NCBI GenBank assembly: GCA_000004695.1 | Contig: CM000151.3 | Location: forward strand, 6,464,001-6,528,000 | Origin: Dictyostelium discoideum | Lineage: Eukaryota | DNA length: 64,000 bases | Direction: 5' to 3' | Part shown: positions 9,009-31,946 of the stretch, piece after piece | How the letters are laid out: each line of letters starts with the position of its first letter | Position numbering within the stretch: the first letter of the stretch is position 1 | Made by a program: the position numbers and the translations under genes | The notes under the pieces: generated by a model | What the model was told of the DNA's origin: nothing | What the model saw: only the letters and a program-made list of their open reading frames with translations | The model's database searches: none

Positions 9009-9086
9009 GATATCGTAGCGAAGTGGTAACGTATTTGACTGAATCAAAGCTCCTAGGAGGCGCAGGTTCGAATCCTGCCGATATCG
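9009..9086 (+). tRNA. type-II (long variable arm) tRNA, most likely tRNA-Ser(UGA), with an irregular anticodon arm that may mark a pseudogene
   Basis: The acceptor stem GATATCG pairs perfectly with CGATATC. The D-loop AAGTGGTAA carries an A box. A long variable arm CTCCTAGGAGGC is present. The T-arm GCAGG-TTCGAAT-CCTGC is identical to eukaryotic tRNA-Ser. The anticodon region ATTTG-ACTGAAT-CAAAG gives TGA in the anticodon position but has C at position 33 and an A.G stem closure. Confidence 0.55.
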
Positions 9087-11928: not shown

Positions 11929-11939
11929 AACTTTTGTTT
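11929..11939. repeat. target-site duplication copy 1 (AACTTTTGTTT) at the poly(A) end of the twin retroelement insertion
   Basis: An identical 11-mer occurs at 18080-18090, immediately beyond the 5' end of the full-length element. Confidence 0.5.
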
Positions 11940-12781
11940 TTTTTTTTTTTTTTTTTTTTTTAATATTGGATTAACAAGATTGATATATGTCCATCTGTGT
12001 TAATACGAGTTTTATTTAATATTTATTTATAGGCTTATCATTTAAGCTGAAGGGTTATTTTAATCATATGAATTGATCAAAAGATATAATATTTGGGAGA
12101 GATGATTCTGGAATACAATAGTAATTAGCTGTTGTTTTTCTTAGCTTGATCGTTGAGGTGAGAAGGATCTTAGGATCTTTGAAATTATTATGGTCTTTTG
12201 CTGATAAGTTTTTCAGATCTTTTGCTTTTTTGATGTATTCTAGAGTGGCCAATTTGTGCCATTTCTTTAGAAGGGAGCTGTATGATAGTGATTCATTTGT
12301 TAAAGGATCTTCACTGTATATTTGATTGCAAATCCAAATCCAAATGTTGTGGAGGATAAGGGCCATTAGGTTTCTATATGCGTATGATCTGGATAGATCA
12401 TAGTCTATTGCTTTATAGTTCCATTCAAAGTATTCTTTGTGGAATCTGTGGTTGGCGTAATCTGCATTCACTTCTTGATCTTTTTTTTGCTGTCGGTGAT
12501 AATTTTGGAGTTATTCTATTAATGAAATTGTTATTTTGCCTAATTCTTGTATGGTGCCAGTTTTTACCTTTGCCTGTGGTAATATAGATGAAATTTTTGA
12601 GTTTATTTATTTTTATGAATTGTTTTGTTTTCTTGCATGAGAAGAACAGGTGACCGTATGGGTCTTTGCTCATATCTTCTTTGCAGAGTGGGCATTGTTT
12701 GTTGTGAAGGTAGTTTATTGGAAGGCATCTGGCATGGAATCTAAACATTGTGTCTCTTGTTTTAGGGTCTTTTATCTTCAG
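11940..12781 (-). mobile_element. 5'-truncated copy of the same TRE3-like non-LTR retrotransposon: its 3'-terminal ~820 bp plus a poly(A) tail
   Basis: 11962-12781 is about 98% identical to 12806-13625. The poly-T run at 11941-11961 is a poly(A) tail on the minus strand. The copy directly abuts the poly(A) of the full-length copy. The ORF fragments at 12064-12471 and 12425-12748 are frame-shifted pieces of the ORF2 C-terminus. Confidence 0.8.
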
Positions 12782-12906
12782 TATTTTTTTTTTTTTTTTT
12801 TTTAATATTGGATTAACAAGATTGATATATGTCCATCTGTGTTAATACGAGTTTTTATTTAATATTTATTTATAGGCTTATCATTTAAGCTGAAGGGTTA
12901 TTTTAA

Positions 12907-15900
12907 TCATATGAATTGATCAAAAGATATAATATTTGGGAGAGATGATTCTGGAATACAATAGTAATTAGCTGTTGTTTTTCTTAGCTTGATCGTTGAG
13001 GTGAGAAGGATCTTAGGATCTTTGAAGTTATTATGGTCTTTTGCTGATAAGTTTTTCAGATCTTTTGCTTTTTTGATGTATTCTAGAGTGGCCAATTTGT
13101 GCCATTTCTTTAGAAGGGAGCTGTATGATAGTGATTCATTTGTTAAAGGATCTTCGCTGTATATTTGATTGCAAATCCAAATCCAAATGTTGTGGAGGAT
13201 AAGGGCCATTAGGTTTCTATATGCGAATGATCTGGTTAGATCATAGTCTATTGCTTTATAGTTCCATTCAAAGTATTCTTTGTGGAATCTGTGGTTGGCG
13301 TAATCTGCATTCACTTCTTGATCTTTTTTGGCTGTCGGTGATAATTTTGGAGTTATTCTATTAATGAAATTGTTATTTTGCCTAATTCTTGTATGGTGCC
13401 AGTTTTTACCTTTGCCTGTGGTAATATAGATGAAATTTTTGAGTTTATTTATTTTTATGAATTGTTTTGTTTTCTTGCATGAGAAGAACAGGTGACCGTA
13501 TGGGTCTTTGCTCATATCTTCTTTGCAGAGTGGGCATTGTTTGTTGTGAAGGTAGTTTATTGGAAGGCATCTGGCATGGAATCTAAACATTGTGTCTCTT
13601 GTTTTAGGGTCTTTTATCTTCAGTATGTTGTTGAAGAGTTGATTATAGCTGTAGCCTCTTAAGTTTAGAGATGATTGGAATTCCGTTTTAGGGATGGTTG
13701 GATTTTGGTCTTGAATTGTGGTATACCATTCTGCCAGTGAAAGTGGTTGTCCATTTTCGTTTTTTATGGATGTGAGATTATTGTTGAAGATTGCTTTTTT
13801 TATTCTTATTTTGTTCCATTCGTCTAAGTTTTCTTTTAGGTATCTGGATGTGAATTTGTTTTTTTGGATCTGATATTCCCAGCTTTTGTGATGAGATGAG
13901 TTTGTTTGTTTGGTTTCTAGTGCTAGGATGAACTGGTTTATGATCCAAAGTTTCTGCGCCAGTTGTCTCAATTCTATATTCCAAATGTTCCAGCCCCCTA
14001 CTTTTAGTGGGTATCTTGCTCTTTTGGTTCTCATTAAATTAATAACTTGAAATCCACTAGCATTTTTGTTGTTTGGTGCCGATAAAAACCATTCGACTAA
14101 TTTATTGATTTGGTTTAATTCCTCTTCCTTAAAGTTCTCTACATATGAATAGTAGGTTAATTTAGAGAGTGCGAATGCTTTGAGGATGTTGGTTTTGGTT
14201 TTGATTGTTGAGTCAGTGGTTTTCCATAGTACTAAGGATGATCTTATTGTGTTTAATATTTCTGGCATTTTTCTTGTTATCCCTTTGCCTGTGAAGAAGT
14301 ATCCCAAGTATCTTTCTGGATTTGTAGATATTGGAATTCTTTGGTTGGTATTGTCTGGGTTGCCTATAAGAATTGATGAAGATTTGTCGATGTTTAGTTT
14401 TGAGGAAGTGGCTTTGCAAAATGAATTGAAGTGTTGTAGTACTAATTCAAGTTGTTGAGAGTCTGGGACCATTGAAGCCGAGTCGTCTGCAAAGCTTTGG
14501 AATTTCTCTCTGTGGTTGCTGTTGTTTAGAGGAAGGCCAGTAATTCGGTCATCTTGTAAAATTTTTCTAGCTAAAGCCTCTATTACAAGGACGAACAGGG
14601 TGGGTGATAGTGGATCTCCTTGTTTAACTCCTCTTTTGATCTCAAAGGGTATAGTAGTTCTACCATTAATTTCAATTCTTGCTTCAGATTTGGTGAGTAG
14701 ATTCATTATCAGGTTGATTATATTGGTTGGAATGTTGATGTGTTGTAGTGATCTGAGTATTGAACCGTGTGAGATCGAGTCAAAAGCTTTTTCGAAATCA
14801 TATAGTGTAATTATTCCGTTAATTCTTTTATCATTACAATAGTTGATTAATTCGTTCATTGATATGATATTATCTATAATGAATCTGCCTGGTACGAAAC
14901 CTTTTTGATTGTGGTTGATCACTTTCGTTAGTATTGGGATTATTCTATTGTTTATTAGTTTTGAGTGGATTTTATATATACAGTTAGCCAGTGTAATTGG
15001 TCTTCTGTTTTTGATTAGTTCGGGGTCTCCCTTTTTAGGTATCGTGATAATGAGGCCTTCTTTGTAATTTTTGCTAATTAGATGAGGATTTCTTAGAGTG
15101 TCGTTGAATGCTGAGGCCAGTATTGGAGCTAGTTTTTCTTTGTGTGTTATGTAGAATAAGTTTGGAATTCCATCTGGGCCTGGAGATTTGTGTGGGTTCA
15201 ATTGTTTTATTACTTCTAGGATCTCTTGTGATGTGAATTCATTTTCAAGGTTGTCCCATGTTGAGTCCCTGGTCACTGTCCAATTTTCCAACATTTCATA
15301 ATGAGATGGTGGGTCATCTTCTTTGTAGTCATAAAGATTTGAGTAATATTTTACGTATTCTTCTTCGATCAATTCCTGTTTGTTGATTGTTCTACCTTGT
15401 GCATCTTTTACTGCGTTGATGGTGAAATCATTGTGTCTTTTCTTGATTCTCGCGGAGATGTACTTGAGTGAGGTTTCTTCGCAATAGTTGTTCAATTCTT
15501 GTTTAAGTTGTTCTTCTCTTTTTTTAGATTCATTTATTGCTGAAAGGGTTGCGAAGGCTTGGTCTTTAAATTCTGTCTCTAGTAGGGAGATTAGATTTTT
15601 GATGTTTGCCTTATTGTTGTAGTCATTTTGTTTTTGAAATTCTGTGTATAGTTGTTTTATTTTGTTTAGTAAGCTGTTGAGTTGAGAGAAGGAAATAGAG
15701 TTATGGTTGGATGACAGCTCCCTTGAATAATCGTTAAGTAGGAAGTCTATTTTCTTAAGCATTATGCTTGAGAGGATTGAGGATTTTTTTAATCTCCATC
15801 TGCGCTTGTTCATCTGTATGTTGGGTAGAGTGAAGGTGGTTGATAGGAAGTTGTGATCTGATAGAGGTATGTCATTAATTTTTGGGGGGATTAGGTTCCT

Positions 15901-16611
15901 TAAGTATAATTGGCTGTAGTTGATTATGCTATTGTTAAGGTATATTCTGTCTAGTCTCCTTTCCAAGATTCTTGTGAGGTTATTGTTTGTGTTGTGTATC
16001 GTTCTTGAGAAGGTGGGTCTTTTATTTAGTTGGTCCATATCCATTAGGTTATTTGAAATTCTGATGGCTTCGATTACTGTGGCCATCTCATCTGGGGATT
16101 GTGTTGTCAAGTTGCCTTGGTCATCATTTGATGTGTGATTGTCATTGAAGTCTAAACAATTGAAGTCGCCTGCTATGATGTCGATGTTTTTTTTAGGGTT
16201 AGACGTTAGGTTGTGGTATTGGTTGTTGAAGTGTTTGTTTAGTGTTGAAGCTAGTGTTTTTCTTTTATCAGGTTGGGCCGGGGCGTATATGGCCAAGATT
16301 CTCGTTGTGGTATCTTTTATTAGAATGTCTGATATTATTAGTCTACCTTCTATTATGAATATTGGTGAGAGTTTTATGTTTTGGTTGTTGTGGTTTAGTA
16401 TTCCTATTCCGTTGCCTCTGTTGGTTGCGCTAATGATGGAGCCAGGAAATAGCTGGTGTGCTTGTGTTGCGTCGGCGTTGAGTTCATTGACTATGGTTAG
16501 TGCCAATGAGTTTGGGGGGGATTGGGATTTGATAAAGTCTGTTTTGTTTTTGAAGGAGGTGTCAGTGCCCCAACCTCTGACATTCCATTGGTTGATTTTG
16601 ATTACTACCAT
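12907..16611 (-). CDS. retrotransposon ORF2: apurinic-type endonuclease, reverse transcriptase and C-terminal Cys-rich (CCHC-like) domain
   Basis: 1234 aa. APE motifs: QWNVRGW, IIAGDFN, RLDRIY, LSDHNF. RT motifs: PITLANCIYKI, QKGFVPGRF, ITLYDFEKAFDSISH, GVKQGDPLSPTLF, SFADDSA (a YxDD variant). C-terminal zinc-knuckle-like segment: CPLCKEDMSKDPYGHLFFSC. Confidence 0.9.
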   Translation of the reverse strand: MVVIKINQWNVRGWGTDTSFKNKTDFIKSQSPPNSLALTIVNELNADATQAHQLFPGSIISATNRGNGIGILNHNNQNIKLSPIFIIEGRLIISDILIKDTTTRILAIYAPAQPDKRKTLASTLNKHFNNQYHNLTSNPKKNIDIIAGDFNCLDFNDNHTSNDDQGNLTTQSPDEMATVIEAIRISNNLMDMDQLNKRPTFSRTIHNTNNNLTRILERRLDRIYLNNSIINYSQLYLRNLIPPKINDIPLSDHNFLSTTFTLPNIQMNKRRWRLKKSSILSSIMLKKIDFLLNDYSRELSSNHNSISFSQLNSLLNKIKQLYTEFQKQNDYNNKANIKNLISLLETEFKDQAFATLSAINESKKREEQLKQELNNYCEETSLKYISARIKKRHNDFTINAVKDAQGRTINKQELIEEEYVKYYSNLYDYKEDDPPSHYEMLENWTVTRDSTWDNLENEFTSQEILEVIKQLNPHKSPGPDGIPNLFYITHKEKLAPILASAFNDTLRNPHLISKNYKEGLIITIPKKGDPELIKNRRPITLANCIYKIHSKLINNRIIPILTKVINHNQKGFVPGRFIIDNIISMNELINYCNDKRINGIITLYDFEKAFDSISHGSILRSLQHINIPTNIINLIMNLLTKSEARIEINGRTTIPFEIKRGVKQGDPLSPTLFVLVIEALARKILQDDRITGLPLNNSNHREKFQSFADDSASMVPDSQQLELVLQHFNSFCKATSSKLNIDKSSSILIGNPDNTNQRIPISTNPERYLGYFFTGKGITRKMPEILNTIRSSLVLWKTTDSTIKTKTNILKAFALSKLTYYSYVENFKEEELNQINKLVEWFLSAPNNKNASGFQVINLMRTKRARYPLKVGGWNIWNIELRQLAQKLWIINQFILALETKQTNSSHHKSWEYQIQKNKFTSRYLKENLDEWNKIRIKKAIFNNNLTSIKNENGQPLSLAEWYTTIQDQNPTIPKTEFQSSLNLRGYSYNQLFNNILKIKDPKTRDTMFRFHARCLPINYLHNKQCPLCKEDMSKDPYGHLFFSCKKTKQFIKINKLKNFIYITTGKGKNWHHTRIRQNNNFINRITPKLSPTAKKDQEVNADYANHRFHKEYFEWNYKAIDYDLTRSFAYRNLMALILHNIWIWICNQIYSEDPLTNESLSYSSLLKKWHKLATLEYIKKAKDLKNLSAKDHNNFKDPKILLTSTIKLRKTTANYYCIPESSLPNIISFDQFI

Positions 16612-17864
16612 TATGAGATGATATCGATCTCCTCTTGGGAGTCGTATAGCTGCGGTTTGGATGGTGAAGGGTAGATACTCTCTATGAAGCTCTCAATGAT
16701 TCCTTTCCTTTCTTTTTTGACAGGTGTCTTAGGGGTGGATGGGATGTAAGGGTTGCTTCTGTTTATTGTTGGTGAGAGTTGGGTGACCTCGTTGTTTGAG
16801 TGGATTTCCTCGTTCTTGCGTTTATGTGATGGAGGGATGTTTGGTGTCTTCTCTCTGTTTTCCGAGGATGAATGGATGTTAGTGCTCGTTTTGTTGGCAT
16901 TGTCTTTTTGGATGGCGTTGGATGTTGTGGTAGTGGTTGTGGTGGGTTTGACAGATTGAGATTCTGCTTGGTTTTTGGGGGGAAGAGGTTGAGAGGACTT
17001 TTTTGATTGGGCTTTTTTCTCTTGGGTTGATTGTTTATCAGACTGATTGTTTGCTGGGTCATTTGTTTGTTGTTGTGGTTTTGGTTGAGAGGATTTGATT
17101 GCTATCCTGTTTTGGGTGTTGGGAGGATCATCTGTCATCTCATCTTCTAATGGTTCTTCCGTGTTGTTTAACTCTACTTTCTTATTTTTCTTTTGTGAGG
17201 AGTAGGTTTTGGTGGCCGTTCTGATGGTAAAGTTGGCGATTTCTGTATTGTGTTGGCCAGATTTCATTTGATCGCCTATTTTGCATTCTATTAGACCGAA
17301 TACTAGGAGGTGGTCGGTGGAGTATATAGTATGGTATATTGCATAGGGTATTTCTTCTGCAAAGGCAGTTTTGATGAGGGCGTCCACTATTCCTGCCTTT
17401 TCTCTTGGAATTCTTACTCTTCCTGTGAGGACGTGGTAGTCTCTACTGGAGGTGATGAAGGTTCCCAATTTGCTTCTATCTCTAATGATATTTAGGAGAG
17501 ATTGTTCGTTTTTAATCATCAGGTGTATCATTTTTCTAGTTCCTTTGCCTATGTATATCTTGTCGATTGGGATATCGTAGTTTGAGAGTGTTTTTCTCAT
17601 TTCTTCTAACCCCATGAGATCCATTTTGGGGAATTCGAGTGTAATTGGGTAGAATCCGTTGTTTTTCTCGTAGGTTGAGAGCGCAGTCATGTTCAATATG
17701 GTCTCGCAGTATTTGGAGATGTCTTTGAGGCCTATTGATAATTTGGGATAGGTCTCCTTTATCTCTGCTGTTTTTGTGGAGAATTCCTTAATGAAGTTCT
17801 CTGATGCCTCGTCCATATGGGTGGAGGGGTTGGCCATTTTAGCCGCGTCTGCGTAGGAATTCAT
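16611..17864 (-). CDS. retrotransposon ORF1: 417 aa with a Pro/Gln/Thr-rich basic C-terminus, typical of a nucleic-acid-binding ORF1 protein
   Basis: The ORF lies directly upstream of ORF2, with its stop overlapping the ORF2 start at 16611. It has no cellular homolog features. It is preceded by a ~215-nt 5' UTR. Confidence 0.75.
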   Translation of the reverse strand: MNSYADAAKMANPSTHMDEASENFIKEFSTKTAEIKETYPKLSIGLKDISKYCETILNMTALSTYEKNNGFYPITLEFPKMDLMGLEEMRKTLSNYDIPIDKIYIGKGTRKMIHLMIKNEQSLLNIIRDRSKLGTFITSSRDYHVLTGRVRIPREKAGIVDALIKTAFAEEIPYAIYHTIYSTDHLLVFGLIECKIGDQMKSGQHNTEIANFTIRTATKTYSSQKKNKKVELNNTEEPLEDEMTDDPPNTQNRIAIKSSQPKPQQQTNDPANNQSDKQSTQEKKAQSKKSSQPLPPKNQAESQSVKPTTTTTTTSNAIQKDNANKTSTNIHSSSENREKTPNIPPSHKRKNEEIHSNNEVTQLSPTINRSNPYIPSTPKTPVKKERKGIIESFIESIYPSPSKPQLYDSQEEIDIIS

Positions 17865-17998
17865 CTCGATGGGATTCCTTTGAATCGGCGATTTGGTAAG
17901 TTATATCTGTAGATCGTGGTGGATTGGTGATTTTTTTTGAAAGATTGGTTAAAATTGACCGAGATTAAGGATAGAAAAGGATGAATTACTTTTCACGT

Positions 17999-18072
17999 GT
18001 ATCTTGTATCCTCTTGATCGCGGTACGGTTTTTTTCGTATCTTGTATCCTCTTGATCGCGGTACGGTTTTTT
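17999..18072. repeat. two tandem copies of a 36-bp unit (ATCTTGTATCCTCTTGATCGCGGTACGGTTTTTT) in the 5' UTR and promoter region of the retroelement
   Basis: Read directly: 18001-18036 and 18040-18072 are identical. 5' repeats are a common feature of TRE-element internal promoters. Confidence 0.8.
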
Positions 18073-18158: not shown

Positions 18159-18239
18159 TGATAAAGGCGAGATTCGAACTCGCGAAGCCGAAGCATAAGA
18201 ACTTGAGTCTTACCCATTTGACCACTCTGGTACTTTACC
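18159..18239 (-). tRNA. tRNA-Leu(CAA), type II, 81 nt, no intron
   Basis: Minus-strand read: GGTAAAG-TA-CCA-GAGTGGTCAAA-TGG-G-TAAGA-CTCAAGT-TCTTA-TGCTTCGGCTTC-GCGAG-TTCGAAT-CTCGC-CTTTATC-A. Acceptor stem is 7 bp with one G.U pair, D-stem is 3 bp, anticodon stem is a perfect 5 bp, the loop has U33 and G37 flanking anticodon CAA, the variable arm is 12 nt, and T-stem and loop are canonical. Confidence 0.85.
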
Positions 18240-20403: not shown

Positions 20404-20868
20404 ATGTCAAACTTTCAAAATCAAGAAATTAATATTGGTTCGGTTGTACTTGGTGATAGATCATTAAGTAATGGTCAATATGGTGATAAAAAGAGTATTC
20501 GTCATGTTGATTTTGATGTACCATTTTCAGGTATTCCAAAAGTTTCTTTAGGAATTAATTTCTTGGATGCATCATCTTCAGAACAAATTCGTATTCGTTG
20601 TATTGCTCAAAATATAACATCAAAAGGTATGGACATTTCATTCACAACATGGAATGATAATACTGTCTATGATGTAGCAGTTGATTATGTTGCTATTTAT
20701 AATCCAAAATTTGGAAATTCAAATAATAAAAATAATAATGATAATAATATTAGTAATACAAATACAAACCAACAAAGAAATCAATATAATGATAATGAAA
20801 ATAATAATTATCAACAACAAAGCCAACAAAGTTATTATGAAAATACAAATAATAATAACAATAATAAA

Positions 20869-20926
<58 letters not shown>

Positions 20927-21465
20927 GTGAAGATAAACAACAACAACATCAACAACAAGGAAGATATCAAGAAAATAACAATTATAATAGAAATGATAAT
21001 GATAATGATTATCAATCTCAATCTCAATCTCAATCTCAATCTCAATCTCAATCTCAATCTCAATCACAATTACAATCAAATAATTTTAATGGTAAAAATG
21101 TAAATATTAGATCAAATAAATTTAATAATTATATTAGAGATAATAATGGTAAAGGTGATATGTCACAAACTGCAAGAAATAATGAAACATGGATAATAAC
21201 ATCTGCCAATAATAATGGAGATTTATTTTTTATTCATAATAGATATAATCATTATCTTTCAAGTAATGGTGATAGAGTATTGGTTGGTGAAAAGAATGAT
21301 TCTTCAATTTGGAAGATTTCACAACGTAGACAAGGTGTTTACTCAATTCAAAACTATAAAAATTCAAATTATCTAAGTTCAACTGATAGAAATGAATTAA
21401 AAACAAATGTTAAAGTTGTAAATTCTTGGGAAGAATTTAATTTTAATTTTGTTCAAGATTCTTGA
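20404..21465 (+). CDS. H-type lectin domain protein: N-terminal H-lectin domain, N/Q-rich linker with (SQ)n, C-terminal fascin-like beta-trefoil-type domain
   Basis: 353-aa single-exon ORF. The N-terminus (VDFDVPFSGIPKVSLGINFLDASSSEQIRIRCIAQNITSKGMDISFTTWNDNTVYDVAVDYVAI) matches the Helix pomatia agglutinin and discoidin H-type lectin pattern (..LD.....R......NIT..GF......TW....VY....W.AI). The C-terminus (WIITSANNNGDLFFIHNRYNHYLSSNGDRVLVGEKNDSSIWKI...YSIQNYKNSNYLS...VVNSWEEFNF) is trefoil-like. Confidence 0.8.
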
Positions 21466-21985: not shown

Positions 21986-22482
21986 AACACACCCTATTTA
22001 ATTTTAAAGAAAAATAATAATAATAATAATAATAATAATAATTATAATTATATCACTAATAATTAAAATAATAATAATTTTAGAATCAAGTAATGAGACT
22101 AGTTAAAACCAATACTATAGTATATATATCATAATGGTAATGGATATTGGCACCCAGGTTTACTAAAATTAGAACCAGGTGGCTTTGTATTGAATGGAAA
22201 TATTTCAAATATTAAACATTTATCATTAGAACAAATTTATAGGTTCATTTCAAACTAAATAAATTAAAATTAAAAATTTTTTTGTTAACTTTTTGTTTTA
22301 TTATTTTGATATATTGAAAATTTGTTAATCATTTTGTATTATTTTTATTTTCAAATAATTAATAAAATTTGAGAAATTATTATATTATGATAATATTGAA
22401 GATGAAAAAACAATTCCCAAATATTTATACGGTGGAATAAATTTAAAAATTAGATTATAAATAATAAATATTTATTATTTGA

Positions 22483-22634: not shown

Positions 22635-24217
22635 TTAACAATAGGTACGACAACCAACATAATCTTCAGTGTAAGCTGGAATGACATGACAATCTTGACC
22701 TGGCTGTTAAATTTAGATAAAAAAGGTTAATAAAGATTTAAAATTTTTAAAATTTCTTTTTGATGATGAAACTAAATAATTAAAATACATACTTGAGGAC
22801 ATTCAGCAACATTTCCATTTCCAATATACATTACAACGTGACCTGGGCCTGGAGCTTCACCTGGGAAGGTATAAAAGAAGAGAGCTTTAAAAGTTGGATT
22901 AAAAAGTAATTTATTTATTAATTAGATTTCATTTTTGAATTTTATCCTTTTTTTTTTTAAAAAATATAAAAAAAAAAAAAAAAAAAAAAATACTTACCAC
23001 CAATTTGACAGGCACCAGTGTTGGCTGGACCGCAATCACCTTGTGAATCTAAATTTTCAACAACAGTGCTACCACTTCCAGATGATGAACCGCTACCACT
23101 TCCAGATGATGAACCGCTACCACTTGAGCTACCACTTGAGCTACCACTACCACTTGAGCTACCGCTACCACTTGAGCTACCGCTACCACTTGAGCTACCA
23201 CTTGAGCTACCACTTGAGCCACCACTGGAGCTACCTGAGCTACCTGATGATGAACCACTTCCGGAAGCTAAAATAAAAAAGGAGTTAATTAAAATTATTT
23301 CAAATGAAAAAGAAAAAAAAAAAAAATTTTGTTCTAATATTTACATGAACCACTGCTACTTCCACTTGAACTACCTGATGATGAACCAGCTATTTATTTT
23401 ATTTAAAATTTAAATTAGTTAGTTTTAAAATCCATATAAAATATTAAAAGATAAAAGAAATACGTTACATGAACTACCTGATGATGATCCAGCTTTTTTT
23501 TTGGAAAAAAAAAAAAAAAAAAAAAAAATTAATTTGAATGTTAAATTTATAAGAAAACGAAAAAAAAAAAAAAAAAAAAGAAATACATACATGAACTACC
23601 AGATGATGAACCACTACCAGATGAAGTACCTGAACTGTTTGGTCCACTACCACATGGTTGACCTAAAATAATAATTTAAATAAATGTAAATAATCCAGAA
23701 ATAAAAAAAAAAAAAATTTCGAAAACTAAAATATTATTTTATAATTACCTTGAGTGAATTGTTGAGAAGCAGTTCTTAAAATACCACTCCAACCAGCTTG
23801 AATATATGATGTTGAGGTAAGACCGGAACAATCCTTAAAAAAAAAAAAAAAAAAAAAGTTAATACCAAGTAAAATTATATTACTGCAAATCAGTTTTTTT
23901 TTTTTTTATGTAAAATACATACCATACCACCAGATCCACCACAACCACATTGTGTACCCTAAATAATAGAAAAATCCATTAGTTTATAAAATTAAATATT
24001 AAATAATTGAATTAAATGATACAAACACCCCAAACATATGGACCTAAATTATTTTTAAAAAAAAAAAAAAAAAATTAAACAATATTAGTTACTTGTTTTG
24101 GAAAAAAAAAAAAAAAAAAAAAAAACTTTAATTAAAATTGGCAATTATCAACCTACAACCACATGATGCATAATTTGAAGCAATGGAACTGTTTTTAAGA
24201 AAAATGGTTAATGTTAA

Positions 24218-24256
<39 letters not shown>

Positions 24257-24478
24257 ATTTTGATAATTACGCTGCTTGAGTGCAAATTTGTGAAGATACT
24301 TAAAGAAAAAAATAAAAAATGATTAATAAATTAATTTTTTTTTTTATTTGAAAAATTACATTTAACTTGTACATACATGGAGTCCAAGAAGTTACATTAT
24401 AGGCTGATTCAAAACCTAATGAGTTGACCAAAGCTGCATTAACAGCTGCAAATGAAAGAATTAATTTTAAAAATCTCA
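22635..24478 (-). CDS. secreted NlpC/P60-family (CHAP-like) putative peptidoglycan hydrolase with a long Ser/Gly-rich repeat insert, eleven exons. Exon bounds on the plus strand are approximately 24370-24478, 24271-24298, 24150-24185, 23927-23958, 23761-23845, 23590-23661, 23465-23490, 23340-23384, 23005-23276, 22802-22899 and 22635-22706
   Basis: Exon 1 carries a signal peptide, MRFLKLILSFAAVNAALVNS. Later exons encode ...SSIASNYASCGC, GTQCGCGGSGG, DCSGLTSTSYIQAGWSGILRTASQQFTQG (NlpC/P60 Cys motif DCSG....Y......R[ST]..Q) and several (SSSG)n exons. A 270-nt exon encodes only S and G repeats and ends ...ENLDSQGDCGPANTGACQIG. The His-box exon encodes ALFFYTFPGEAPGPGHVVMYIGNGNVAECPQ (compare HVGIYIGNG.MI.A). 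The last exon encodes PGQDCHVIPAYTEDYVGCRTYC*. All junctions are GTA(A/T)GT...AG and preserve the frame. Confidence 0.7.
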
Positions 24479-24539
24479 TTTTAAAAATATATAAATAGAA
24501 ATTATTTGTACAATACACAAAAAATGAAAAAAAATACTG

Positions 24540-25445: not shown

Positions 25446-25496
<51 letters not shown>

Positions 25497-28400
25497 TATT
25501 TTAATTTAAAACTTACAATATGATCATTTGGTAAATCAATGAATCTTGGTAAATAAGATGGTAAAGTATGCAATGATATTAAATTTTGGGTTGAAGGTGG
25601 ATTGATAGTACCTCTTTTTGAAAATTCATCACTATTGACTAAATCAACGATTGAAGGTAAACCTAATTTCTTAATCAACTCTTTTACATTTGAGAATGAT
25701 TCAATTGATAAACCACTAAATGTATTGATAGTATCTTGATTTGAAGGATTTGTAGATTTATGATTAACTAATAAATAACAATAATGATGGAATAAATAAG
25801 CTTTTCTAATGAATGGAGTTAGAATTGTTTCAATGGTTTCAATTTCACCTTCATTTGATAAAGAGTAATTTTCATGAACTGGATTTGAAATTCTTGAGCT
25901 AATAATATCACTTGCTAAATGAATGTATGATTTATAAATATATGGATATGGATTGACATCACGATTTAAGAAATGACTCATTGCACAAATTATAAATGGG
26001 TCAATATTGTGAAATCTCTTTTGTTGATCTAAAGAATAGAAATCGAAATATTTATAATTAAATTGAATATCTGTTAATTTCATAACATTATTATATAACA
26101 ATGTTAAAGTTTCTAATTGACGTTGAAATTCAGATTTTGAATAAATATAATAACCATTATTATTATTATTATTATTATTACCAATACCATTTAGACCATC
26201 TAAATTATTAATACCACTATTTGTATAATTATAATTCTTTCTTGAAGTAATTTCTAAAATTTCAATATTTGATAAAATAAATTTCAAGAAATAAATAGCA
26301 TTTGATGGATTTAATTGCTTTGGTGGATATTGATAACTCCAATCAGAGTTTACAAATGAAAAGAATAAATTTGAAACCAATGCTGTATTTTCAGGGTGAG
26401 CAACAAGATCAGAGTGATTAATAGGTTTAACTATTAATGCAATATTAGAGGCACGATTACATAATGGACATTTAAAGTGATCATTTACATAGTATGGTGC
26501 ATAAACTGATAAACAACTTCTATGTATATAATGACCACAAGTTTGAACACGAGTTTTATTTGAAAATTGCATCAACTCTATATTTAAATCTATATCTAAA
26601 TCATCTATATCATATTTATTATATTCTTCATAGGTTTCAATATTCATTGGTAAATCAACATGTTTTTTATTCTCTTCAATTACTTCTTCTCCATTGTGTT
26701 GTTGTTGCTGTTGCTGTTGTTGTTGTTGTTGTTGTTGCTCTGGTTTTGAACTTCTTAAAAATGCTTGATAATTTGTAAACTTTTTAATTGAGGAATGTTC
26801 AATTAAACCAATTGAACAAATTGGATCAGTTATATTATTTGAATTATTTTTACAAACTACACAAACTAAATCTTTTTCTTCACCACTATGAATATGTTCA
26901 TTTGTAGTTGTTGATGAACCATTAAAATCTTCATCATCATCATCATTTAAAAGTTCATTAGATTGTAAGAATTGTAATTGTTGCATTCTCATTTTTCTTT
27001 TAATTTCTTCTTGTCTTTCTTGAGCGATTTTCTTTCTAATATTTGCATCAATTTCACTTTGTTGTGATAATAATGATGCCATATCTAATTTCTTTTCCTT
27101 TAATAACTTTTCAATATTATTATCATATTCATATAACATTGTAAATAATTTGTTAATTAAATTCTTTTTATCTGAAAATACATTATTCTTTTCAATATTT
27201 AATGATAATTCTATTATTAAATTTAATAAATTTGTTTCAGCAATATTTTGATTATTATTATGATTATTATTTTGATTATTATTATTATTTTCTTTAATAT
27301 TAAAATCTAATTTCTCTTCATTTTCTTCAATATTTTTAATAATTTCAATTGGTTTAAATAAAAGTAACATTGGATTATCACCATCAGCAGATTTGATATT
27401 ATCATTGAATAAAGATTTTTCAATTTTTTCATTTGCAATTGACATATTAATTAATTTTGAAAATTGTTGTTTTAATTGTTGATCAGTCAAAGAGATTGAA
27501 GATTCTAAAAATGTTCTAACTGATAAAACTATAATGTATAAGGTATGATTGAGTAATGGATCATAATATTGATTAAAATCATTTGAATCAACTTTAATTT
27601 TACCGGCAGATAACATTAAACTAAGGAAATTTGAAATATAAAAATCCATATCTCTTTCATCATTATTTTGAACATTATTATTTGAATTTGAAATTAAATT
27701 ATAATTTGGATATAAAAATTTTAATAAAATTGAATTTAAAATTGTAAATAAAATTGGTTCATTTAATAATTTTTCAACATTTTTTAAATTTTCAGGTAAA
27801 GGATCAGTTTTTGAAGGTAATGGATAAGATTCTGGTATTGGGTGATTATTTTGTTTTAAGTAATCATAATAGTTTGCCAATGATTTATAGGTGAAAGAAT
27901 TTGGATCGAAATAATGATATGGATAATAAACATCGAAACGATCCCAATACTCTGGTTTCAAAATTAACTTTCCATCTGGTTTTGGTTGATGACTAACTTG
28001 TTTAATTATATCTTCAACATTGAATAATGTAAATTCTTTACGTTGATCTAAAAGTTTTGAAAAGTTATTGGTATTAAAAGTTAAGGCTTGAATTATATGA
28101 TATCTTGCTTCTTGAATACCATATTTTGCTTGTTTTCTATGTTGAATGATAACAATGATATACTTTAGGAATTGGGATAACATTGTTGGATTATCAGTAT
28201 CCATATTATAGTTACCTGAAAAGTTATTCAATGCTAACAATATGAAATGTCTAGTACCCAATAGCATTGAACAATATTGTACCAATGTTAAATCGATTGA
28301 AAACAAAGACCAAATATAATACGAGGTGAAATCACTAATATTTAAATTTCTTTCCCATAGACGACATTGATGTTGACCCACTAGAATAGCGGGTAACATT

Positions 28401-29693
28401 GATTTGGTTGCCAAAAATAAAACAGTCTCCAATGGTATCTTTGATTTTATTGTATCAAATGAATACTGAGGTGAGTCATAAACTGAATTCAATAAATAAA
28501 TTCCAATTAATCTATTGGTTGGTAAATGTAATGGTACAGCGACTTCACCACTTAATATATTTGCCTTTGGTAATAAAGTACCACTAAACATTCTATGAAG
28601 AGCAGTGTCTGGGTTTTGATGTCTATCAATTGACAATTGTAAATGGCTCAAAAGGATGTCTAAATACTTTAAACTTGAAAAACCTTGTTTATGTAAACTA
28701 TGAAAGAATGTATCAAATGCCATAAATGATTGACATTCAATTGAAACCACATTTGAAATCACTGGTAGCTCGTATTCAATTGCTTTTTGAGTCTCTCTTT
28801 TGATTGGACATAACAATTGAATTTCATCAGTGATTGCCAATAGAGAATTTACAACGGTATCAGAGTTGTTATCAATATATTCACAATTTTTGTCGTGTCT
28901 AAAAATATTGGAGATATAATTATAATCTTGATTACAATAAAACTCTTGATCATAGTTCTTTCTCTGTGTGGCATTGTATAGATCATATTTATTCTTTGTT
29001 TGAACCAATGAAAGTTTAGTTTTAATTAAAATTGATAAAAGGTTTTGTTTTGAATAACCAGTTGAAAATGGTACAGCGATTGAGGGTAATTCAAACATTT
29101 GACATGAAATGGCCGATACCAATGATCTAACTTGAGAATTTGAAGACAATGCCAACTTTGGATAATTGGTTAAAAACTCCTCACAAAAGATAAACTTAAA
29201 GTATCTATTACCAATTATTGTTATAATCAATGGTCTAAATATCATCAACACTCTTGGTTCGCCATGGATCAATGAAATGATTGATCCCACTGCATTGTTT
29301 TCCCTCTTTAATTGATCCACATTCTCATAAGAGAGTACTTCAGAGTATGGTAATTTCACTGGTGAATATAAATCAAAACTATTTGGATCCAATATACGTT
29401 GACTAAACTCCTCAGAGATTATATACAATAGTGGATATGATTTTCTTGCTAATCTATCAATAAACTTGAATAAATTAAATGATTGACTGAGTACTAATTT
29501 CTTTGTAAACTTTTTAATATTTTTCTTAAATATTGGTGTATCCATATTCAATTTTGTATTTGATGAAATTGGTTTAGTAATATCATTAAATATATGAAAA
29601 TTTTTACTAAATACTTCATTAAATAATTCAGTTTCATCACCACAATCTGATTCATCAGCTTCTTCGTTTTGTATCATTTCTTCATCTGAATTA

Positions 29694-29791
<98 letters not shown>

Positions 29792-30160
29792 TGGATTATT
29801 ATTATTATTTTGTTGTTGTTGTTGTATATTATTGTGGAAATCACGCATTATCTGGTTAAAACCATTATTATTAATTAAACCTCTAAGTGCATTAAATCGA
29901 TCGATATGTTCATCTGAATCAGAATCGGAATCAGAATCGGAATCAGAATCAGAATCATACATTAAATTTCTTAAATCTACATTATTGCCAGCATCTTCAT
30001 CCATTTCTTCGAGTGAACTATCTTGAATCATTTCACTATCACTATTTTCTTTATTGGTATTACTATAATCACTACTATAGTTAACGTCTTCTTCCTCTTC
30101 TTCTTCATTATAATGATTATTTCTGTTTTGGTTGTCGAAAAAGTTGATGTATCTGCCAAT

Positions 30161-30253
<93 letters not shown>

Positions 30254-30256
30254 ATT

Positions 30257-30322
<66 letters not shown>

Positions 30323-30505
30323 AAATCTAGGTCCTAATCCATTATTTATAATTGCTTCATTGTTAATATTGTTAATAAAACGATGGAAATACTGAATAAT
30401 ATTATTGTCTACCAAAAGGTTTCCAAATCCTAAGTTGCCTTCTTCTGGCTGTTGTTGCTGTTGCTCTTGTGGTTGTTCTTGAGGTGGTTGTTGCTGTTGT
30501 GGTAG

Positions 30506-30546
<41 letters not shown>

Positions 30547-30776
30547 GCTCTTGTGGTGGTTGTAGTTGTGGTTGCTCTTGTGGTAGTTGTTGTAGTGGAT
30601 GCTGCATTTGTTGTTGGCCTTGTAAAACGTTTCCAACTAAATTATTATTACCCATATCTAATACCCTATCAATAAAATTAATTTGACGAAGTTCAGCTAT
30701 TTCTTGTAGATCTATTCCTGGGAATACAAACTGTTGTTGTTGTTGCTGAAGTATCTGTGGTATCTGTTCTTGCTGC

Positions 30777-30872
<96 letters not shown>

Positions 30873-31946
30873 CGATGATGTTGAACTCTAGTTCTACGAT
30901 TTTGAAAATCTAAAGCATCTAATCTCTTTTTTTTCTTTAATATTTCATCTCTAATAAAATCAGCGAATAATAATTCCAATCCATTAAAAGAAGAGAAAGT
31001 ATCTTTTGGGTTATCAAATCTTAATGAATCCAATGTTCTTAATAAATGGACCACCAATATTCTAATGGTAATATGAAAGTTTTTTTTAGTAGTTTCATTC
31101 AATTTATCGGATGGATGTTCTGGTGAATTTTGATCCCTATGCTTTGTACAAAACCCTGATGGTTTAAATGAATCTGGATTACCACAATCACAACAACCAC
31201 CAAGCCCACTCTCCTCAATCATAAATGCATGACCTTCCTTTATATGAATACTATTCTCCATACATGATATGCAAATACATGATGTTTCAGTTTGTGCACA
31301 ATCTTTACACCTAAAAAACCATGTTTTTTTTGTCCATTCTATTATATATAAAAAAAAAAAAAAAAAATAATAAAACAATTAATAATTTTAATAAATATTA
31401 ATAAATATTAATAAAAATATAATATAAAAATACATTACCAAATTGACAAAATGGAAATTTATGAATACTAGTTTCTTTAATTATTGATTCTGTATCACGA
31501 TTATTTAATTTTTCAAAGATAAAGTTGAAGAGTGGTTGTGAGAAAGTGAGTGTTGGATAAGATAGTGTCATTGAATTTAAAAATGTTAAATAAGGTTGTG
31601 CATCAAATTTTTCATCTTCAATTGGGTAAAGATTAATGTTGTTTTTTTTTAATAACGCTTCAAATAAATAATAATGTTCTTTTGAATTTGATGATTCATC
31701 ATCTGAGCTATCTTCATCAACATTGAGTTTAACTGTAGTTCTTTTTGCTTGATAATTGTTATTTTCCATAATATCATCATCTTCATCCCCATCTTCTTCG
31801 TCACCATCTTCTTCTTCCTCTTCTTCTTCATTATCTTCATCTTGGTCTTCATCATTTTCATCTTCTTCATATTCATCTTCTTCATACTCATCCTCTTCAT
31901 CCTCTTCAATATTTTCATTATCATAATTTAGAATGTAATTCAACAT
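25001..31946 (-). CDS. UBR-box E3 ubiquitin ligase (N-recognin, UBR1/2-like), over 2200 aa, three exons: 31440-31946, 25507-31338 and 25001-25363
   Basis: Exon 1 is an acidic N-terminus ending ...HKFPFCQF at a GTAATG donor. Exon 2 opens with the UBR box (EWTKKTWFFRCKDCAQTETSCICISCMENSIHIKEGHAFMIEESGLGGCCDCGNPDSFKPSGFCTKH), has very long poly-Gln/Asn tracts and a RING-H2-like segment (CGHYIHRSCLSVYAPYYVNDHFKCPLCNRASN), and ends ...PNDHI at a GTAAGT donor. Exon 3 is a Cys-rich C-terminal domain, EFLISNITKSCKRKCDLLPKGVCLFCSTIVCFNGDCCEDEFKDHVTFCSYQGLFLGVCSPEVSIGFDDGDRDSSLCIYYDKFNEPALK...*. Confidence 0.85.
29691..30318. repeat. coding microsatellites inside the UBR gene: (ATT)n of ~100 nt at 29691-29791, then (ATT)n and (GTT)n of ~150 nt at 30168-30318. 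On the coding strand these are poly-Asn and poly-Asn/Gln tracts
   Basis: Read directly. Further (GTT)n tracts at 30776-30872 and 30440-30600 encode poly-Gln. Confidence 0.9.

Follow-up and report, generated by a model that had tools for sequence, protein, structure and literature searches.

Secreted eukaryotic NlpC/P60 proteins directed against bacteria have been described in Trichomonas vaginalis (NlpC_A/B; PMC6299479, PMC10461829), A. fumigatus (CwhA; PMC12332128) and the house dust mite (LytFM; PMC5586350), and the eukaryotic homologues assayed so far cleave peptidoglycan (PMC6299479, PMC12332128). Eukaryotic cell-wall hydrolases of bacterial ancestry are already known, and relatives of the protein described here are labelled NlpC/P60 domain-containing in public databases; a D. 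fasciculatum homologue has been placed among the eukaryotic NlpC/P60 proteins in the LytFM phylogeny (PMC5586350). The gene in question lies on the minus strand of a 64,000-nucleotide (nt) stretch of Dictyostelium discoideum DNA (NCBI GenBank assembly GCA_000004695.1, contig CM000151.3, positions 6,464,001 to 6,528,000 of the forward strand), which as a whole is called the window below and is numbered from its first letter. In our view the locus is likely to be an intact dictyostelid gene, rich in introns, that encodes a soluble NlpC/P60 (MEROPS C40) enzyme of the secretory pathway acting against bacterial peptidoglycan, with a long Ser/Gly loop within its catalytic domain.

The bacterial DL-endopeptidases (M. 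tuberculosis RipA and RipB, E. faecium SagA, PDB 6b8c, B. subtilis LytE, and E. coli MepS/Spr) share with the window protein the Pfam family, the fold, the Cys of the DCSG motif and the His of the HV strand, at ~30–38% identity. They have neither the extra cysteines nor the Ser/Gly insert, usually carry LysM, SH3b, SLT or coiled-coil modules, and serve the remodelling of their own wall, not the digestion of prey. The Trichomonas, A. fumigatus and mite enzymes, secreted and acting against bacteria as proposed for the window protein, belong to separate lineages and are absent from its top sequence matches, which are dictyostelid and then bacterial. The T. vaginalis NlpC enzymes carry bacterial SH3 domains, and for none of the Trichomonas, A. 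fumigatus or mite enzymes has a low-complexity insert inside the catalytic domain been reported. Such an insert, conserved between species, is the only unusual feature of the hydrolase.

Two groups of dictyostelid proteins lie nearer. The insert-less proteins, such as D. discoideum AX4 XP_629164.1 (176 residues) and a Cavenderia fasciculata 'NLP/P60 domain-containing protein', are 42–58% identical to the window protein and share with it the signal peptide, an N-x-T sequon, the segment CGCPYVWGGT(S/Q)CGCGGSGGMDCSG, the HV box and a PGQDC motif. The cysteine pair of FYC...CP(D/S)H, absent from the window protein, is kept in them, and their loop cysteines are 3–4 residues apart, in contrast to 122 in the window protein. 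The second group consists of T. lacteum DLAC_01431 (266 residues) and the D. purpureum DICPUDRAFT_25810 locus, with core identities of 58–62% to the window protein, a Ser/Gly insert in the equivalent loop and the same tail after it. Sequence comparison makes both of them probable orthologues of the window gene, from which they differ in tract length, in repeat units, in intron number (2 in T. lacteum and 6 in D. purpureum, compared with 11) and in retaining all 15 cysteines.

The gene extends from an ATG beginning at position 24479 to a TAA ending at 22635 and consists of 12 exons and 11 introns, with an 873-nt coding sequence and a product of 290 residues. All 11 introns are of the GT..AG type and measure 68–113 nt, which makes 22 of 22 splice-site dinucleotides canonical, and the reading frame stays open across the 12 exons. 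Between 24479 and 22635, short GC-richer blocks on the minus strand alternate with extremely AT-rich spacers: the exons have a GC content of 32–50% and the introns 10.5–14.6%, in a window that lies at ~20–25% outside a retrotransposon, as is typical of Dictyostelium. A second NCBI assembly, GCA_054883475.1, which we located through an exact look-up of the neighbouring 353-residue open reading frame (ORF), has a minus-strand gene call exactly at window positions 22635–24479 whose product measures 290 residues; the match between that product and our 290-residue model is inferred from coordinates and length only. Along 16 kb the identity of the two loci is 99.76%; the hydrolase gene itself is the same in both (100%), and the differences (~0.24%) lie elsewhere. 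The Pfam match given below, the GC contrast between exons and introns, and the gene call at the same place in GCA_054883475.1 confirm that the gene is real and not a product of chance.

A first-pass annotation of this DNA had counted eleven exons and started the gene at 24478, one base short of the ATG. It had also expected automated gene models to go wrong, which holds for D. purpureum, where the deposited model spliced the Ser/Gly tract out, and fails for GCA_054883475.1, a newer assembly from the D. discoideum group, with its call of a 290-residue product. The choice of splice site needed comparison at exon 3, where the donor GGTT/gtaggt (the slash marks the boundary) gives SCGCPYVWGG, the reading of every homologue. 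We rejected the donor TGTG/gttgta, three bases off and leading to a product of 289 residues, because the homologues all read SCGCPYVWGG. The alignment shows the phase 1 intron after exon 1 at an identical place in the orthologue from D. purpureum, and the 17-nt micro-exon that follows exon 3 recurs with identical flanking intron phases in the D. discoideum paralogue P0040 (L004 3273-3289).

The product matches Pfam NLPC_P60 with 34.2 bits (cutoff 23, E = 2.7e-8) over its full 290 residues, in two stretches that flank the Ser/Gly tract. With the tract removed, the match rises to 39.7 bits (E = 5.1e-10) and becomes one stretch covering profile positions 3–80 of 105. NLPC_P60 is the sole Pfam match of the protein, in which no papain-family (C1) domain was found. 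The first-pass annotation had left open a CHAP domain (PF05257) beside NlpC/P60; the Pfam search of the hydrolase protein gave no CHAP match at E up to 1, and its sequence therefore places it in NlpC/P60 proper (Pfam PF00877; MEROPS C40). Searched against solved structures, the family profile matches 6b8c (1.3e-11), 3h41, RipA, LytE, MepS and the Trichomonas enzymes.

The Cys motif and the His box that had been noticed in the DNA are both present in the spliced translation, as MDCSGLTSTSYIQAGWSGILRTASQQ and GPGHVVMYIGNGNVAECPQ. Alignments with eukaryotic and bacterial homologues show ten invariant positions (P56, Y57, G60, G61, D73, C74, S75, G76, H253 and V254). Cys74 lies within DCSG, downstream of PYVWGG, and corresponds in alignment to the catalytic Cys of NlpC/P60 enzymes with solved structures. 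His253 lies in the HV box, and Glu265 follows 12 residues further on, a spacing equal to that of H432 and E444 in RipA (as given in PDB entry titles), whose third residue is likewise acidic and 12 positions past the His. Glu265 aligns with the third-residue His of 6b8c, and the paralogues carry E, Q or D at this position. The alignments show these residues to form a putative Cys74-His253-Glu265 triad of the RipA type. The window protein has 13 cysteines, 12 of them non-catalytic, compared with 15 in other family members; the missing pair, encoded in exon 11, is replaced by FYTF in place of FYCF and by GPGHV in place of CP(D/S)HV. The joint absence of these two cysteines is consistent with the orderly loss of one disulfide.

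The structural model is an AlphaFold2 prediction of the T. lacteum orthologue P0002, which stands in for the window protein, shares 54–60% identity with it when the tract is left aside and carries its insert in the equivalent loop. The predicted local distance difference test score is 92–98 on both catalytic halves and 42–48 on the insert (res. 109–195), and a helix begins at residue 74. A Foldseek search with this model returned NlpC/P60 structures for all of the top 50 matches; the alignments reach across the insert, and the target TM-scores go up to 0.84, the best being that of T. vaginalis NlpC B3 (8ev4). The two halves are thus predicted to form a single NlpC/P60 domain despite the insert, which the orthologue model predicts to be disordered. 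By this evidence the mature window protein, once its signal peptide is removed, would be one disulfide-rich domain with a papain-like alpha+beta fold.

The Ser/Gly coding sequence begins within exon 7, takes up exons 8 and 9 and fills the greater part of exon 10. Its pure run (res. 110–215) contains 106 residues, of which 72 are Ser, 32 Gly and 2 Thr, with nine SGSG and 18 SSSG motifs. Since the two loop cysteines are 122 residues apart in the window protein and 3–4 in the insert-less paralogues, the insert measures ~118 residues, somewhat less than the ~130 first proposed. It sits in the surface loop that joins the Cys-bearing helical half to the His-bearing sheet half. Exon 10 is made of tandem units of 12, 18, 24 and 30 nt, all multiples of 3 and perfect or near-perfect, and, past the repeat, reads on without a break to the conserved segment GDCGPANTGACQIG, a part that the domain requires. 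The match falls into two stretches in just one of the 11 closest cluster representatives, the one that bears the insert. A plus-strand ORF of 131 residues with LPLELP repeats (23018-23413) is the antisense of the Ser/Gly repeat and crosses an intron; we discarded it as an artefact.

Comparison between species bears on whether these segments are exonic, as the first-pass annotation had held. The T. lacteum gene has a single open frame of 209 codons that includes WGG...DCSG, a disordered Ser/Gly-rich insert of 87 residues, and HVVMY...stop, so that the tract shares an uninterrupted frame with both catalytic halves. In D. purpureum, an annotated 413-nt 'intron' at the loop position contains a Ser/Gly tract in frame, a pair of short AT-rich introns and a conserved Cys-x-Pro-Ser motif that is missing from the deposited model. 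That model (DICPUDRAFT_25810; L003 2854-4064, GL870947.1) is a partial protein of 142 residues that lacks the signal exon; our rebuilt gene has 7 exons and a complete product of 259 residues, which corrects the deposited entry. Three insert-bearing proteins have in common a non-repetitive tail after the tract (TVVEN, NVVKN and NTLV) that the paralogues do not have. Across the insert-bearing species the pure run varies from 63 to 106 residues, and composition is kept, not sequence. The continuity of exon 10, the 209-codon frame of T. lacteum and the in-frame tract of D. purpureum show, at the level of sequence comparison, that the insert is coding, translated and old, and that it has been kept at one site in at least three species. 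A single ancient insertion would be the most economical reading of this distribution.

The Cys-rich NlpC/P60 family to which the protein belongs occurs in Cavenderia, Acytostelium, Heterostelium, Polysphondylium, Tieghemostelium and Dictyostelium. All of these members score at least 180 bits, as do a few metagenomic proteins of eukaryotic appearance that fall within the family. A metagenomic protein of unassigned source organism (P0053) follows at 97 bits and bacterial relatives at 83 bits or less, those with names being Actinobacteria and lactobacilli. An exhaustive profile search of 1.84 billion cluster representatives left only 11 with an E-value of 1e-30 or lower. We built a neighbour-joining tree from the core domain; in it the eight dictyostelid proteins without the insert group in one clade with 100% bootstrap, the insert-bearing proteins of T. 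lacteum and D. purpureum pair at 81%, and the window protein stands beside them. The D. discoideum insert-less paralogue XP_629164.1 has both introns around the 17-nt micro-exon in common with the window gene, which is integrated in a eukaryotic genome, with 11 spliceosomal-type introns and ordinary amoebal genes around it.

Because the next identifiable relatives outside this restricted, eukaryote-like clade are bacterial, the simplest reading of the sequences is that an ancestor of the dictyostelids, before they diversified, took the gene family over from bacteria, which agrees with published phylogenies that set a D. fasciculatum homologue among eukaryotic NlpC/P60 proteins (PMC5586350). 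The horizontal origin suggested in the first-pass annotation is therefore plausible, and its view of the gene as long resident is supported by the presence of the family in all major dictyostelid groups, by the existence of paralogues and by intron positions held in common with them. Further domain arrangements were seen among the more distant, metagenomic members of the family. P0050, P0051 and P0276-P0281 carry an extra, unannotated N-terminal domain of ~200 residues ahead of the Cys-rich NlpC/P60 domain; in P0051 an intron seems to have been left unspliced and translated, a hint that its source is eukaryotic. The relative P0008 has a WSC domain in place of the extra N-terminal domain.

Judged from sequence, the protein most likely serves to cut bacterial peptidoglycan, as an enzyme that is either endolysosomal or secreted. 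It would enter the secretory pathway and have its signal peptide removed, as the secreted enzyme first envisaged would; the hydrophobic N-terminus, the family-wide N-x-T sequon, the even number (12) of non-catalytic cysteines and the loss of one pair together all favour such an entry. Family membership suggests that it would cleave the stem peptide of peptidoglycan at the bond between gamma-D-Glu and the diamino acid, either in phagolysosomes or outside the cell, and so would aid the breakdown of eaten bacteria. The Ser/Gly loop would leave the two halves able to form one domain.

A role for the loop itself can be sought among the lysosomal proteinases of Dictyostelium. Lysosomal cysteine proteinases and NlpC/P60 enzymes are both papain-like and belong to clan CA. 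The Dictyostelium proteins cprD-G and proteinase-1, likened here by description only, resemble the window protein as secretory or lysosomal papain-like cysteine peptidases with a long serine-rich low-complexity domain; they belong to family C1, as opposed to C40, and the phosphoglycosylated lysosomal enzymes so far described all have a C1 catalytic domain, so the likeness is one of analogy, not of membership. According to the passages of PMC5758549, PMC6994554 and PMC4920372 that cite Souza 1995, Mehta 1996 and Ord 1997, the serine-rich domains of such proteinases bear N-acetylglucosamine-1-phosphate (GlcNAc-1-P) on serine, and a passage of PMC5758549 has the lysosomal cysteine proteases of the GlcNAc-1-P class arrive at phagosomes in the first wave, in separate vesicles. 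The window protein, too, combines a signal-like N-terminus with a serine-rich domain (72 Ser in the 106-residue run). By analogy, the loop may be a platform for the dense attachment of sugars to serine, most probably GlcNAc-1-phosphate ('phosphoglycosylation'), a tentative proposal to which we give a little under an even chance. Such a modification would mark the class of vesicles that reaches bacteria-containing phagosomes first and would shield the loop from proteases. A bolder extension, which we regard as speculative and rather improbable, is that the Ser/Gly loop is a portable sorting and shielding cassette, inserted independently into two unrelated families of papain-like peptidases, the amoeba's own cathepsins and a cell-wall hydrolase of bacterial derivation. 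If this were so, both peptidase families would be packed into vesicles delivered first to freshly eaten bacteria, and the loop would be a sequence signature of first-wave bactericidal cargo.

The killing and digestion of bacteria by amoebae is a model for phagocyte immunity, and the reviews consulted name lysozymes only as the known peptidoglycan-degrading enzymes of Dictyostelium. NlpC/P60 endopeptidases present throughout the dictyostelids, apparently never studied, would add the cutting of peptide cross-links, complementing the cutting of sugar chains; the same activity has been shown to serve Trichomonas, fungi and mites against bacteria. The main value of the hydrolase is that it gives studies of amoebal bacteriolysis a candidate and lets ideas about serine-rich loops of lysosomal enzymes be tried on a concrete case; through its conserved Ser/Gly loop, the sorting or protection of Dictyostelium lysosomal hydrolases could be tested in a simple way.

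Several observations weigh against this account of an intact enzyme with a maintained loop, beginning with the tract. Low-complexity inserts are common among Dictyostelium proteins, and the tree lacks resolution at the node that joins the window protein to the other two insert-bearing proteins. Because the tract is built of perfect or near-perfect tandem units (12–30 nt), its purity may reflect ongoing replication slippage, not selection. The enzyme assignment would then be right and the tract would be a neutral low-complexity expansion in a tolerant surface loop, an explanation that we judge unlikely while taking it seriously. It accords with the conservation of composition alone between species, with the varying length of the pure run, with the disorder predicted in the orthologue model and with the functioning of most family members without any insert. 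The identical loop position and shared non-repetitive tail in three species across Tieghemostelium and Dictyostelium are harder to accommodate, and all three tracts are near-pure Ser/Gly, where neutrality predicts other residues creeping in, or loss. The serine-rich domains of lysosomal peptidases also provide a Dictyostelium precedent for a biochemical role. The connection of this tract with phosphoglycosylation is drawn from its composition and from the titles of papers, which counts against the loop proposal.

Other doubts concern the enzyme and the gene. The fold evidence comes from the T. lacteum orthologue, not from the window protein, and the loss of a cysteine pair kept by all other family members could mean relaxed constraint. 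Exons 8 and 9 are small and of phase 1-1, so that skipping or alternative splicing could preserve the frame. A protein with the NlpC/P60 fold might act on something other than bacterial peptidoglycan, as an amidase or acyltransferase on the spore coat, the stalk matrix or a gamma-glutamyl polymer, or might be a non-catalytic binder like RipD. The superfamily does contain non-peptidoglycan enzymes, non-catalytic RipD (4jxb/4lj1) is among the fold matches, and literature searches found no functional study, and no published function, for any dictyostelid NlpC/P60 protein. We nevertheless think such a role improbable, given the full canonical P60 signature, the intact Cys-His-Glu triad, the nearest relatives in sequence with a solved structure, which are without exception peptidoglycan endopeptidases, the cleavage of peptidoglycan by the assayed eukaryotic homologues, and the habits of an amoeba that has no peptidoglycan of its own and feeds on bacteria. 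Slighter still is the chance that the gene is a decaying or silent paralogue, or that the transcript in the cell differs from the 12-exon model. The missing cysteine pair, the unusually high intron density with very small exons, the lack of a recorded Pfam match for the 290-residue call of GCA_054883475.1 and a gene model built from sequence alone would all suit that explanation. It is at odds with the canonical splice sites and the frame kept over 12 exons, with catalytic and core residues that are all intact, with the joint loss of two cysteines that leaves an even number, as expected from orderly disulfide loss, with the identity of the gene in a second assembly that differs elsewhere, and with the intact orthologues in two other species.

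Table 1. Positions of the hydrolase exons and of other features within the window.
Feature	Position	Strand	Content
Exon 1 (103 nt)	24377..24479	minus	ATG, signal-like N-terminus MRFLKLILSFAAVNAALVNS, conserved N-x-T sequon (N28)
Exon 2 (28 nt)	24271..24298	minus	SSQICTQA, with first conserved Cys (C40)
Exon 3 (32 nt)	24157..24188	minus	SIASNYASCG(C), donor gtaggt
Exon 4 (17-nt micro-exon)	24027..24043	minus	(C)PYVWG
Exon 5 (36 nt)	23923..23958	minus	GTQCGCGGSGGM
Exon 6 (85 nt)	23749..23833	minus	DCSGLTSTSYIQAGWSGILRTASQQFTQ; codon of putative catalytic Cys74 at 23830-23828
Exon 7 (72 nt)	23591..23662	minus	QPCGSGPN, then start of Ser/Gly tract; loop Cys104
Exon 8 (24 nt, phase 1-1)	23469..23492	minus	SGSSSGSS; GC 0.42 compared with 0.11-0.13 in flanking introns
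Exon 9 (45 nt, phase 1-1)	23345..23389	minus	Ser/Gly tract
Exon 10 (270 nt)	22998..23267	minus	Main Ser/Gly tract, in frame into conserved tail TVVENLDSQGDCGPANTGACQIG
Exon 11 (92 nt)	22793..22884	minus	(A)LFFYTFPGEAPGPGHVVMYIGNGNVAECPQ; His253 codon 22840-22838, Glu265 codon 22804-22802
Exon 12 (69 nt)	22635..22703	minus	PGQDCHVIPAYTEDYVGCRTYC, then TAA
Span coding the Ser/Gly/Thr-only run	23065..23636	minus	106 residues (res. 110-215), with introns 7-9 intervening
tRNA-Ser(UGA) gene	9009-9086	plus	
Non-LTR (long terminal repeat) retrotransposon	~11930-18010	minus	ORF1 16611-17864; ORF2 12907-16611 (reverse transcriptase and endonuclease)
Duplicated 3' piece of retrotransposon	12064-12471		
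tRNA-Leu(CAA)	18159-18239		
H-type lectin gene	20404-21465	plus	Single exon, 353 residues
Coding-like short stretch	~22120-22260	plus	NGNGYWHPGLLKLEPGGFVLNGNISNIKHLSLEQIYRFISN, then stop
UBR-box E3 ligase-like gene	25496-31378	minus	Very long exon, extensive poly-Gln and poly-Asn

The intron load of the hydrolase gene, 11 for an 873-nt coding sequence, is very dense for the D. discoideum genome, which averages about two introns per gene. Introns 7, 8 and 9 each split an identical TCA T/CT GG context in phase 1. A recent tandem duplication of an exon-plus-intron unit (exons 8-9, introns 7-9) was considered and rejected, as similarity between the introns is limited to homopolymer runs; the common phase 1 context as a trace of such a duplication is suggestive only. 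The family is rich in micro-exons, of 17 nt in the window gene and at L004 3273-3289, and of 8 nt at L002 3270-3277 and L003 3871-3878. The 8-nt micro-exons of the other species lie at different positions.

Inspection of the flanking genes of the window revealed no functional link between the hydrolase gene and its neighbours. The H-type lectin gene lies directly downstream of the hydrolase gene and encodes a protein with an H-type lectin domain at its N-terminus (74 bits), after which come long tracts, Asn-rich or of (Ser-Gln)n. The coding-like stretch in the spacer between the two genes has no Pfam match and no gene call in the related assembly. Elsewhere in the window, the 3' piece of the non-LTR retrotransposon is duplicated, the end of the element lies ~150 bp from the tRNA-Leu(CAA) gene, and the related assembly L001 has the retrotransposon in another arrangement than the window.

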